Below the pieces are notes generated by a model. The model ran no database searches. It saw nothing but the letters and a program-made list of their open reading frames with translations, and was not told the origin of the DNA. 64,000 bases of DNA, from the NCBI GenBank assembly GCA_963737065.1, contig CAVTRC010000001.1, positions 832,001 to 896,000 on the forward strand, written 5' to 3'. A program made the translations under genes and the position numbers. Position 1 is the first letter of the stretch, and the number at the start of each line of letters is the position of its first letter. The DNA comes from Candidatus Eremiobacteria bacterium. GTDB lineage: Bacteria > Vulcanimicrobiota > Vulcanimicrobiia > Vulcanimicrobiales > Vulcanimicrobiaceae. This document shows, piece by piece, positions 41,084 through 44,943 of the stretch.

Positions 41084-41218
41084 CTCCTTAGCGCGCTCCT
41101 GTCTTCGAGTATGGGTTTTCGCGCGGTCTCGCTGCACGAGACACACGCCTCCTTTGCCTGATTACCCGGACAGGAGGCGTGAATCGCAACCGTCTATGCC
41201 ACTTCGGTGTCATAGATA
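41084..41218 (-). promoter_or_regulatory. structured 5' leader with alternative anti-SD pairing (candidate cis-regulatory RNA)
   Basis: hairpins 41193-41216, 41144-41181 and 41126-41142; competing helix 41096-41103/41169-41176. Confidence 0.4.
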
Positions 41219-41271
41219 CTGGAGAGAGAAACAAAGCAACCCCGGCCGTTGTATGATGGGCGGGTACACAT

Positions 41272-41432
41272 CGTGCGGAAGGCCGTAAGCGGCAAGGCGC
41301 CCCGGCCCACGGTGGGTTTGCGTAGCAAACCCGAGCATCGCCGAATCGTCGTTGACGCGGACTCACCTCGGTCTGCCGATACCCCGGCTCGACTGCACCG
41401 GCGGGTAGGAATAGCTGGTCCAGGTCTGCGCG
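41272..41432 (+). ncRNA. structured RNA upstream of dnaK, raiA-motif-like candidate
   Basis: closing stem CGTGCGGA/TCTGCGCG, GGCCG/CGGCC, loop CGGCA pairing with TGCCG (pseudoknot), CCACG..hairpin..GAGCAT, 3' CCAGGTC; -10 TATGAT at 41252. Confidence 0.5.
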
Positions 41433-41458
41433 CAAGTTTGAAGAGAGGTTAGTTTGTA

Positions 41459-43318
41459 ATGGCAAAAGTGGTCGGTATCGACCTCGGTACGACCAATTCG
41501 GTCGTCGCGGTGATGGAGGGCAGCTCGCCCGTCGTCATTCCGAACTCCGAAGGTTCGCGTACTACTCCGTCGGTCGTCGCATTTACGAAGACCGGCGAAC
41601 GTCTCGTCGGTCAACTTGCGAAGCGTCAGGCGATCACGAATCCGGATCGCACGATCGCTTCGATCAAACGGCACATGGGCGAAGGCGATTACCGCGTCAA
41701 GATCGACGGCAAAGATTACACGCCGCAAGAGATCAGCGCGATGATCCTGCAAAAGCTCGTCAACGACGCGAGCAATTATCTCGGCGAACGCGTGACCAAA
41801 GCGGTCATCACGGTTCCCGCATATTTCAACGACGCGCAGCGTCAGGCGACCAAAGACGCCGGCAAGATCGCCGGTCTGGACGTGCTGCGTATCATCAACG
41901 AGCCGACGGCCGCTGCGCTTGCGTACGGCCTCGATAAAAAAGGCAACGAGACGATTCTCGTCTGGGACCTCGGCGGCGGTACGTTCGACGTGTCGATTCT
42001 CGAAGTCGGCGACGGCGTTTTCGAGGTCAAATCGACCAACGGCGACACCCATCTCGGCGGTGATGACTACGACCGCCGCATCGTCGATTGGCTCGTCGGG
42101 GAATTCCGTAAAGATCAGGGCATCGATCTGAGTAAAGACAAACAGGCGATGCAGCGTCTGACGGAAGCCGCTGAAAAAGCGAAGATCGAGCTTTCTTCGG
42201 TCGTGCAAACGTCGATTAACCTGCCGTTCATCACGGCCGATCAGGAAGGTCCGAAACATCTCGACTTCACGCTCACGCGTGCAAAATTCGAAGAGCTGAC
42301 CGCGGACTTGACCGATCGATGCGTTGCACCGTTCAAGAACGCGCTCGCGGATGCGAAGATCGACATCTCGCAAATCGACGAAGTCGTGATGGTCGGCGGT
42401 TCGACCCGCATGCCCGTCATCCAAGAGCTCGTCAAAAAGCTCACGGGCAAAGAGCCGAATCTCACGGTAAATCCGGACGAAGTCGTCGCGGTCGGCGCTG
42501 CGATTCAAGCCGGCGTGCTTGCCGGTGAAGTGCGCGACGTCGTTCTGCTCGACGTCACGCCGCTCTCGCTCGGTCTTGAAACGCTCGGCGGCGTCATGAC
42601 GACGCTCATCGAGCGCAACACGACGATTCCGACGAAGAAATCGCAGATCTTCACGACCGCTGAAGACGGTCAGACGTCGGTCGACATCCACGTGTTGCAG
42701 GGCGAACGGCCGATGGCGGGCGATAACAAGACCCTCGGACGGTTCCGTCTGGAAGGCATTCCGCCCGCTCCGCGCGGCGTGCCGCAGATCGAGGTGACGT
42801 TCAATATCGACGCCAACGGCATCGTGAACGTGAGCGCGAAAGATCTCGGAACGGGCAAAGAGCAACAGATCACGATCACCGCTTCAACCAATCTTTCGAA
42901 GGACGAAGTCGACCGCATGGTTCGCGACGCGGAAGCGCAAGGTGCAACCGATAAAGCGAAACGCGAAGAGGCCGAGGTGCGCAACAACTCGTCGAGCCTC
43001 ATTTACTCGACCGAGAAGTCGCTCAAAGAAGTCGGTGAGAAACTGGATGCCGGTGCGCGCGGCGAGGTGGAGACGGCGCTCGCGGATCTGAAGCGCGTTA
43101 GTGAAAACGGGACGGTCGAAGAGATCAAACCCGCAATCGAACGCCTGCAACAGGCGAGCTACAAGATGGCCGAGCTGCTTTACAAGTCTGCATCACCGAA
43201 CGGTGAGGCAGCCGGTGCCGGCGCAGGTGATGGTGCCGCCGCGGGAGCGGGCACAAACGGCAATGGCCAAGCGCCGCCCGAAGATGTCATCGACGCCGAA
43301 TTCAAGGAAGCGAAATAA
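41459..43318 (+). CDS. dnaK: chaperone DnaK
   Basis: [31 protein letters not shown]. Confidence 0.98.
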
Positions 43319-43378: not shown

Positions 43379-43912
43379 ATGAACGATAACGAATTGATTA
43401 CGGAAGCCGGCGAGGCGACGATCGACGACGCGGCCAGTTCGAGTGCGGACGAATTGCGCTCGCAGCTCGATGTTGCGAACGCAAAAGCCGACGAGAATTG
43501 GAATAAGTATCTCCTCGCGATGGCGGACTTCGAAAACTACAAGAAGCAGATGGAGAGACGCGTGCAGATGATCGTCAATGATCATCGTAAGTCGGTACTC
43601 CTGCGGTTTCTCCCGGTGATCGACAATCTCGAGCGCGCGCTGCAGTTCAATGCATCCGGTGACGACAAGTTGCGCGGCGGCATCGAACAGACGCTCAAGG
43701 GATTCGAATCGGTCTTGAACAGCGAAGGCGTCAAAGCGATCGACGTGAAGGGCAAGCCATTCGATCCACGCGTTGCCGAAGCGATCGGTACGCTTCCTGC
43801 GCAGAACGGCGTCAGCGACGACATCGTCGTCGAAGTTGCGGAAAAGGGCTATAGCATGGGTGACGAGCTGGTGCGGCCCGCGAAGGTTCTCGTCGCCAAA
43901 ACGCCTGGATGA
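43379..43912 (+). CDS. grpE: nucleotide exchange factor GrpE
   Basis: [30 protein letters not shown]. Confidence 0.95.
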
Positions 43913-44943
43913 ACTACAAAGACTACTACGCACTCCTCGGCGTTCCGAAAACTGCGCCCGAGAAAGACATCAAATCCGCGTACCGCAAGCTCGCGCGAAA
44001 GTGGCATCCCGATGCGAACCCCGACAATCCGAAAGAGGCCGAGGAGAAATTCAAGGAGATCTCGGAGGCGTACGAGGTACTCGGGGATCCGGAGAAGCGC
44101 AAGAAATATGACGTGCTCGGTTCGGATTGGCAGCGCGCCGCTCAGCAAGCCGAACAGCAACGCCGGTACCGCACGCGGTACAATCCGAACGATTTCCAAT
44201 TCGATTTCGGAACGTCCGGTCAAAACGCGGACGGTGGAGCAGGCGCGGGTCCGACGGGCTTTTCGGATTTTTTCGACATGTTCTTCTCCGGTATCGGACG
44301 CCGTCAAGGCACGCAGAGCGCCGGATTCGCGCAACGCGGACAAGATCTCGAAACGACGATCGAACTCTCGCTGCGAGACGTCTACGACGGCGGCAAGAAA
44401 GCCGTCTCGTTGCAGATCGAAGACATCTGTCCGCGATGCCGTGGCACCGGTACGGTTGGCACGCAACTGTGTCCGCAATGCGGCGGCACCGGCCATGTGT
44501 TGCTCACAAAGAAGTTTGAAGTCACGATTCCGAAAGGCATCGGCGAAGGGCAGCGGATTCGTCTCGCCGGTCAAGGCGGCGCCGGAACGCGCGGCGGTCC
44601 CAACGGCGATCTCTATTTGATCGTGAAAGCACTGGACGACTCAACGTACAAGCGCAAAGGCGACGATCTCTACGTCGATCTGCCGGTAAACCTCTACGAT
44701 CTCGTGCTCGGCGGCGAGGTCAAAGTGCCGACGATGAGCGGGCAAGTGACGATGACGATTCCCGAAGGTACGCAAAACAATCGCTTGCTGCGCTTGTCGG
44801 GCAAAGGGATGCCAAAAGTGAAAGGCGGCGGCGCCGGCGACGAATACGTTCGCTTGATCGGACAGCTGCCGCAGTCGCTGAACGACAAAGAGAAAAAGCT
44901 TTTCCGCGAACTGGCATCCATGCGGAACGGTAAAGCGAAATAA
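43909..44943 (+). CDS. dnaJ: DnaJ family co-chaperone with only two CxxCxGxG motifs
   Basis: J domain with [16 protein letters not shown] and CPQCGGTG. Confidence 0.9.

Follow-up and report, generated by a model that had tools for sequence, protein, structure and literature searches.

Within the window analysed here, a stretch of 64,000 nucleotides from the genome of a Candidatus Eremiobacteria bacterium (contig CAVTRC010000001.1, positions 832,001 to 896,000), the chaperone gene dnaK is preceded by a structured RNA element that adjoins its ribosome-binding site (RBS). The element is very probably a real, functional RNA leader of dnaK, conserved across relatives. Taken as a whole, it is read here, with a probability of about 0.5, as a cis-acting 5' leader of dnaK-grpE-dnaJ that would represent an order-specific RNA family in Eremiobacterota and serve translation as a thermosensor and/or a factor-binding operator. 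The RNA family, its invariant core, the gene under it and the lineage are new, while heat-shock genes under the control of structured 5' leaders are a known arrangement. An initial annotation, made from the letters alone, had compared this region with the raiA-motif RNA and had named as its fallback a novel class of RNA tied, in another lineage, to the heat-shock operon. The fallback is borne out by an element that is conserved, covarying, present in a single copy per genome and always located before dnaK, and the comparison with related genomes that the annotation had proposed finds both the leader and its closing helix conserved and covarying.

The closing helix, termed P1, encloses an invariant internal loop in which GUAAGCGGCAAGG faces UGGUCCA and in which a helix of three base pairs, P1a, includes an invariant G.U pair. 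P1 joins 41273-84 to 41423-33, with G41277 bulged, A41279 mismatched to G41428, and five inner pairs formed by 41280-84 and 41423-27. Beyond these pairs, the asymmetric loop runs through the GUAAGC bulge, the GGC/GUC helix and AAG/NUG before giving way to a second helix, P2, and a variable arm by whose length short (under 45 nt), medium and long forms of the leader are distinguished. The words UAAG and GCAAGG are invariant in 88 short and nine long forms, and on the opposite strand GGTCC keeps its G, T and C without exception in the 88 short forms, the other letters being at least 90% conserved. More than 10 unpaired nucleotides of the core are kept without change across more than 50 genera, and a 13-mer of the invariant strand occurs only once in the 3.08-Mb genome. 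In all forms, the 3' strand of P1 ends 0 to 26 nt before the Shine-Dalgarno (SD) sequence or RBS.

Base pairing in the core is evident from compensatory change. The 88 short forms were used to build a covariance model, R1, for which 13 pairs were assigned by hand because RNAalifold on the raw MAFFT alignment of these sequences had missed P1 owing to misregistered strands. In the R1 alignment of 95 non-redundant leaders, 87.6% of cells form standard pairs, a level that none of 500 shuffles (70.8%) attained, although such shuffle counts overstate the support because the counted alignments were fitted to the model or consensus and the genomes are kin. Controls with slid partners leave only 27-48% of cells paired. 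Changes on both sides were seen in 11 of the 13 model pairs, including all eight pairs of P1, the innermost of which varies between G-C (49 leaders), C-G (32) and A-U (13). Within P1a, the first pair is G-C in 92 leaders and C-G in three, all of family f2, whereas the G.U pair and the last C-G pair are present in 95 of 95. The f2 relatives (L026, L029 and L031) carry the core as GUAAG(GC/CC)GCAAGG with UGGUGC, the only compensatory change in P1a, and have a strong SD, GAGGAGG, 0-2 nt after the 3' strand of P1. Short forms have UCCUUG before P1 and CGGAAAG after it; the UCCUUG variants consistently fit neither a pairing with the invariant CAAGG nor one of their UUG with the CGG after P1.

The leader can be aligned over its full length in all six congeners (76-88% identity), and its core is common to families f1 and f2, as seen in the 400 nt before dnaK from 30 relatives. 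A pattern of two conserved words (20 letters, 31 gap lengths) was scanned against the genomes of 185,579 species and gave 102 loci, 78 of which lie directly before dnaK. This count comprises 76 loci flagged by a regular expression, minus the false L071, plus L040, L054 and L068, which have variant dnaK starts and were added by eye. The named records among the 78 are metagenome-assembled genomes of Eremiobacterota, Vulcanimicrobiota or WPS-2, with Baltobacteraceae, Elarobacter, Lustribacter, Velthaea and Rubrimentiphilum as the named taxa, and the other records have the same type of leader. The remaining approximately 24 loci are in unrelated taxa, have no dnaK and are about as numerous as estimated for chance.

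Searches with R1 agree with this distribution. The class sample gave matches in 94 of 151 genomes (f1, 91 of 115; f2, 3 of 3; f3, 0 of 32), a tally that includes the unpublished genome G144, with one match each except for two adjacent matches in G120. In the phylum sample, R1 matched 57 of 70 f1 genomes and both f2 genomes, and none of the 78 genomes of 19 other families. Directly downstream of the match was dnaK in 29 of 30 fetched loci, the thirtieth being interrupted by a contig end. Filtered R1 searches miss long-armed forms, including that of the window itself, whose copy was recovered by an unfiltered local search (41280-41427, 17.1 bits, E 1e-4; the alignment contains an insertion of 115 nt). 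When the 95 leaders were realigned to R1, each gave one match, the window leader at 22.6 bits. Five f1 genomes missed by R1, from five genera, have long forms with one invariant 12-mer each, 142-151 nt before dnaK; since these too carry the element, it appears to be near-universal within f1. A filtered match elsewhere in the genome (C1:1378300-1378418, 16.8 bits, E 0.68) is without the motif and was set aside as noise.

Table 1. Coordinates of the dnaK leader, its parts and its surroundings in the window.
Feature	Position	Strand	Basis or detail
Upstream promoter-like pair, CGCAAC and TGTCAT	41185-90 and 41208-13	+	conserved spacing in relatives
Imperfect palindrome TATGCCAC-N4-GTGTCATA	41194-41216		within first promoter-like pair; inverted-repeat search
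Second promoter-like pair, GAAACA and TATGAT (-10 of the initial annotation)	41229-34 and 41252-57	+	conserved spacing
P1, 5' strand	41273-41284	+	covariance model R1, long-form consensus fold, pair changes
Invariant 5' strand GUAAGCGGCAAGGC	41285-41298	+	bulge GUAAGC 41285-90, P1a GGC 41291-93, AAG, P2 GC 41297-98
Variable arm (in the window, short helices forming a rod)	41299-41413	+	~115 nt; consensus fold, pair counts
Optional hairpin insert	41313-33		absent in long forms L005-L009
Apical hairpin GCGGACU/GGUCUGC	41357-41376	+	stem 41357-63/41370-76; loop CACCUC 41364-69
Invariant 3' strand GCUGGUCCA	41414-41422	+	P2 GC 41414-15, P1a GUC 41418-20, CA
P1, 3' strand	41423-41433	+	covariance model R1, long-form consensus fold, pair changes
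dnaK Shine-Dalgarno GAGGU	41445-41449	+	complementary to loop ACCUC 41365-69
dnaK	41459-43318	+	Pfam HSP70 (E 1.5e-253)
grpE	43379-43912		Pfam GrpE
dnaJ	43909-44943		Pfam DnaJ and DnaJ_C

The fold that had been proposed for this leader survives only in part. The words on which it was built (TATGAT, GAGCAT, CCAGGTC and the strands of its helices) are all present, and GGCCG (41281-85) and CGGCA (41290-94) are complementary as letters to CGGCC (41303-07) and TGCCG (41374-78), respectively. Its closing helix, CGTGCGGA (41272-79) with TCTGCGCG (41425-32), is complementary and corresponds to a real helix, but in another register than the conserved one of P1. In alignment A3, which contains the nine long forms, the proposed fold as a whole has 74.1% of cells paired compared with 71.6% in shuffles (18 of 500 as high). 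The pseudoknot between CGGCA and TGCCG is paired in 53% of cells with zero compensatory change, and its 3' side is in a portion of the arm that is missing from short forms. The inner helix GGCCG/CGGCC reaches 79.5% but competes for C41283, C41284 and G41285, which are assigned to P1 and the invariant GUAAG. The hairpin GGGTTTGC/GCAAACCC (41314-21/41325-32) is present in the window without being conserved: its columns are lettered in only three or four of the nine long forms, as expected of an optional insert.

The likeness to raiA-motif RNA fares worse, and a compact raiA-motif RNA at this position is hardly credible. The raiA motif is described mainly from Bacillota and Actinomycetota, near raiA and comFC; like the present element, it is a large structured intergenic noncoding RNA, and its biochemical function is unknown. 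Beyond this, only the order of motifs given in the initial annotation and the occurrence of the listed words in the window speak for it, and several of those words fall in the genus-specific arm that most family members lack. The dnaK leader has no match to the raiA model RF03072, does not conserve the pseudoknot proposed as shared, belongs to another phylum, lies before dnaK instead of near raiA/comFC, and sits directly on an RBS. Across the whole genome, the best RF03072 scores are 15.2 and 14.4 bits at unrelated loci, with a cut-off of 101.3. An Infernal check of the kind that the initial annotation had suggested (cmscan of 41100-41520 against 4227 Rfam families, E<=10) returned a single chance microRNA match, on the minus strand and outside the element, and Rfam had no match at gathering score in the whole window. 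In the leaders of fifteen relatives, four weak matches at E<=1 all fall outside the motif, and the thermometer families of Rfam (ROSE, FourU and others) match neither the window nor these leaders. The case shows that a plausible resemblance may lead to a genuine element on mistaken grounds.

An element acting in DNA, as promoter or operator, or a leader peptide could in principle take the place of an RNA structure. Such a reading can point to the promoter-like elements and palindrome located just upstream and to an open reading frame (ORF) of 67 aa at 41249-41452. It is very improbable and, for the core, contradicted: P1 and the arm contain compensatory changes, both promoter-like pairs are upstream of the element, and the invariant G.U, which would be A/C on the other strand, fits an RNA of the dnaK strand and not DNA. 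The ORF was rejected as a leader peptide since it is not kept, measuring 8-44 aa in congeners, which do not retain a 59-aa frame of the window either, and arm indels are not multiples of three. No conserved upstream ORF was found in 149 leaders, in which the longest closed ORF has a median of 8 aa.

The upstream elements have a conservation of their own. Both GCAAC and TGTCAY are found in 69 of 107 distinct upstream sequences of relatives, and in 67 of these 69 their starts are exactly 22 nt apart; a GGAACA-like hexamer followed after 16-17 nt by GTAnnAT is found in 94 of the 107. We take the AAC within both -35-like words to recall promoters of the extracytoplasmic function (ECF) type; a sigma-70 scan gave no site at the GAAACA/TATGAT pair. 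A palindrome-like site, TG(C/A)CA-N5-9-TGTCA, is found in 54 of the 107 upstream sequences, and a loose scan of the genome found 12 such sites, none other of them before any chaperone gene examined. The palindrome at 41194-41216 is a candidate operator for some regulator of dnaK, separate from the RNA. With promoter-like elements and a palindrome upstream, the RNA need not be the sole control of dnaK. An additional hairpin around the TATGAT-like motif is not supported overall, the mean best stem being 6.4 bp compared with 5.7 bp with shuffled flanks (94 sequences), but strong inverted repeats around this motif occur in some lineages.

Transcript evidence comes from a soil metatranscriptome, in whose RNA library one 271-nt contig (depth ~294, ~91% identical) spans 41228-41493; it derives from a congener and links the leader with dnaK, of which it includes the first 35 nt, but as an assembly it may include DNA and proves neither start nor strand. 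The 5' end of this contig, at ~41226, precedes the TATGAT box by 26 nt and is therefore compatible with a start from the upstream promoter-like pair. In three of four RNA runs examined, coverage was limited to the dnaK coding sequence of assorted organisms. Word shares in the matching sequencing runs are all <=0.17, from which no habitat, expression level or start can be derived. Nothing suggests a transcription start downstream of the element.

Although the core is fixed, the arm varies in length among relatives from ~10 to ~135 nt. The nine long forms, from three genera, share one common irregular rod in a consensus fold. This rod has 91.5% of cells paired on A3, whereas shuffles give 87.3% and none of 500 matches it, a comparison biased in its favour because the structure was derived from the same sequences; 12 pairs changed on both sides, and slid controls reach 29-42%. 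A different long arm is found in L185 (G120:C2:2004741-2004923), a leader of short-form type with UCCUUG and CGGAAAG whose ~135-nt arm contains several hairpins and no ACCUC loop, which argues that arm expansion occurred more than once. A freely varying arm and a long 5' rod that could guard against decay, as 5' hairpins are established to do for other mRNAs subject to 5'-end-dependent decay, would suit a structural element with a role in the stability or processing of dnaK mRNA but none in sensing. This explanation is improbable; it leaves the invariant unpaired nucleotides, the loop described below and the fixed position beside the RBS without a reason.

At the apex of the long arm is a hairpin whose loop carries ACCUC. 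The 3' end of 16S rRNA in this genome is GGATCACCTCCTTTCT, so that the loop copies the anti-Shine-Dalgarno sequence and complements the SD of dnaK. Five of the seven pairs of the apical stem changed on both sides among the nine long forms, and single-sequence folds of minimum free energy (MFE) leave (A)CCUC unpaired at the tip of 26 among 29 distinct arms of the medium and long classes. The ACCUC loop was also present in all of five further genera. The duplex of loop and SD is predicted at -8.1 kcal/mol in the window, with a mean of -9.45 over 34 forms compared with -5.24 for shuffled loops, and extends to 7-8 bp in some forms (e.g., L005, L008 and L191). Among the 149 leaders, ACCTC in the arm and GAGG within 22 nt of the start are found in 0 and 10, respectively, of 108 with arms <45 nt, in 18 and 23 of 31 with arms of 45-69 nt, and in nine each of 10 with arms >=95 nt, an association that is confounded by phylogeny.

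These observations suggest how the leader might work. Control at translation initiation is marginally favoured on the present sequence comparisons, and masking of the SD by the loop has a little less than an even chance of being the effector step in long and medium forms. In the folded state, CACCUC in the arm loop would pair with GAGGU of the dnaK SD and exclude the 30S subunit. With only 5-8 bp, this pairing would be the labile step, and it would be expected to melt in the physiological range. The contact may open on warming and/or when the invariant core changes state, the core being most likely where a trans-acting factor from the chaperone network binds, or else a rigid bend by which the loop is placed close to the SD. 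Synthesis of DnaK would then rise with heat or folding stress.

Several points weigh against this mechanism and the reading it belongs to, apart from the kinship of the aligned genomes and the limits of the RNA-library assembly already given. The leader (41260-41460) has an MFE of -71.3 kcal/mol, whereas shuffles average -77.2 (z +1.19), 174 of the 200 being no less stable than the leader. In nested folds of the leader the SD is free, and masking therefore requires a non-nested contact of the pseudoknot type. The geometry of the long forms, in which the apical loop is ~35 helical steps from P1 and the gap between P1 and SD is ~11 nt, would demand sharp bends for this contact. Moreover, CCUC and GAGG cannot covary because both are constrained, and the flanking pairs that would extend the duplex show no consistent covariation. 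Finally, short forms are without ACCUC yet have the same invariant core, so the loop is not a universal effector.

The main rival shares the anatomy of the favoured reading and differs in its trigger. In it, the leader is a protein-binding feedback operator without intrinsic thermosensing: a chaperone or chaperone-dependent repressor would bind the invariant loop and be titrated by unfolded proteins, with the ACCUC loop as an accessory. Simple thermometers usually keep fewer invariant unpaired nucleotides than the more than 10 conserved here, and the retention of core but not loop in short forms, the position of the core beside the RBS in every form and the presence of one copy per genome, at the regulated operon, are all in keeping with such an operator. 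A single-copy operator adjoining the RBS of its own operon is also the arrangement by which leaders of the ribosomal-protein type are recognised, and it is found here. No RNA-binding gene is evident in the operon from the Pfam domains of the neighbours, no candidate protein has emerged, and mimicry of a cellular RNA target is weak; the explanation is unlikely, if still to be taken seriously. Precedent is provided by E. coli IbpA, which is reported to repress its own translation via the 5' UTR, a heat-shock mRNA leader mediating translational feedback as envisaged here (PMC10474464, PMC10410725). The gene, phylum and RNA differ in that case, and the binding protein for the dnaK leader is only hypothetical.

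The mimicry that such an operator might use was sought in two RNAs of the same genome, and both candidates were rejected. The signal recognition particle RNA (G000:C1:30167-30265) shares the 9-mer CGGTAAGCG with the invariant strand, but this word has 79 copies in the genome and the opposite strand is unmatched. In 16S rRNA (G000:C2:411691-413191), CCGTAAGGAGCAAGGCG agrees in 15 of 17 letters near the 3' end, at the tip of helix 44, at a level expected by chance (blastn-short E=5), and the match was dismissed as such. In 16S rRNA, GUAA sits in a closed tetraloop, one that the leaders of most members are unable to fold.

A small-molecule riboswitch, with the invariant loop as aptamer and the stability of P1 governing access to the RBS, would account for the conserved pocket, the covarying P1, the variable arms and what would be distinct expression platforms in short, medium and long forms. 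A conserved, covarying, aptamer-like core with invariant pocket nucleotides, the hallmark of the riboswitch type, is indeed what was found. The core is nevertheless a small internal loop and not a multi-helix junction, only one gene is served, once per genome, dnaK hints at no metabolite, and a terminator scan of the leader region found none. This explanation is slightly more improbable than even the purely structural one. A broader proposal, which is rather doubtful as it stands, is that the invariant loop GUAAGC-GGC-AAG / NUG-GUC-CA serves as sensor in a new regulatory RNA class that sets synthesis of DnaK (Hsp70) in the whole order. It would bind either a chaperone-network protein or some small signal indicating folding stress and would drive interchangeable outputs, namely the anti-SD loop in long forms and P1 with UCCUUG in short forms. 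If true, this would be a riboswitch-like, RNA-based alternative to sigma-32, HrcA and HspR for a central chaperone.

Other chaperone genes in this genome appear to follow a more familiar pattern. It has hrcA (C1:2458392-2459048), with a CIRCE-like repeat ~340 nt before it (G000:C1:2458030-2458056), and tandem CIRCE-like repeats just before groES-groEL (G000:C1:1757046-1757109; L188 147-210). In agreement with the initial annotation, which saw neither operator at dnaK, a genome scan found no CIRCE-like site there and no HAIR-like site. CIRCE-like sites at groES-groEL and hrcA but not at dnaK mean that the HrcA regulon does not extend to dnaK, so that a separate control of this gene is conceivable. 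HrcA-CIRCE and HspR-HAIR are comparable to the present leader as lineage-wide controls of chaperone genes, but they consist of DNA operators bound by repressors.

RNA thermometers such as ROSE, FourU and that of cyanobacterial hsp17 resemble the leader in being located in a heat-shock 5' UTR and in using a short pyrimidine stretch complementary to the SD. They are mostly known for small heat-shock and virulence genes, whereas the gene here is dnaK itself. The SD of the present leader is outside any local hairpin and would be reached by a distant apical loop, and the large invariant internal loop has no counterpart in thermometers. To our knowledge, nearly all known control of dnaK is transcriptional (sigma-32, HrcA-CIRCE and HspR-HAIR). 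PBC-38-1, the Breaker laboratory's "dnaK motif", is likewise structured and conserved in intergenic DNA ahead of dnaK; it is reported from Enterobacteriaceae, between dnaK and satP, where it overlaps a promoter and, by its authors' proposal, would function in the form of single-stranded DNA (PMC11109978). The present leader differs in coming from an unrelated lineage and in being absent from Rfam 15. Searches of the literature, with article supplements outside their scope, found, among the papers listed, no published description of an Eremiobacterota dnaK leader, the unrelated enterobacterial motif being the only dnaK RNA motif to come up, and no dnaK thermometer leader with an anti-SD element of this type; none that pairs Eremiobacterota with a riboswitch was found. 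The leader adds to a largely uncultured phylum of soil and peat a conserved, covarying RNA outside Rfam that lies on the RBS of dnaK. Its invariant pocket and anti-SD loop are concrete targets for mutation in asking whether an RNA sensor governs the central Hsp70 post-transcriptionally.

On its 5' side, dnaK is separated by an intergenic gap of ~310 nt from a Vgb_lyase-like gene on the opposite strand, whose reading frame ends at 41146. A perfect 10-bp inverted repeat, CACGCCTCCT / AGGAGGCGTG, with 18 nt between its arms, is located at 41144-41181, at the start of this divergent gene, and is the place of the chance match in the Rfam scan, which was to mir-2188. At the equivalent position, relatives have the GC-rich terminator hairpin of an htrA-like gene.

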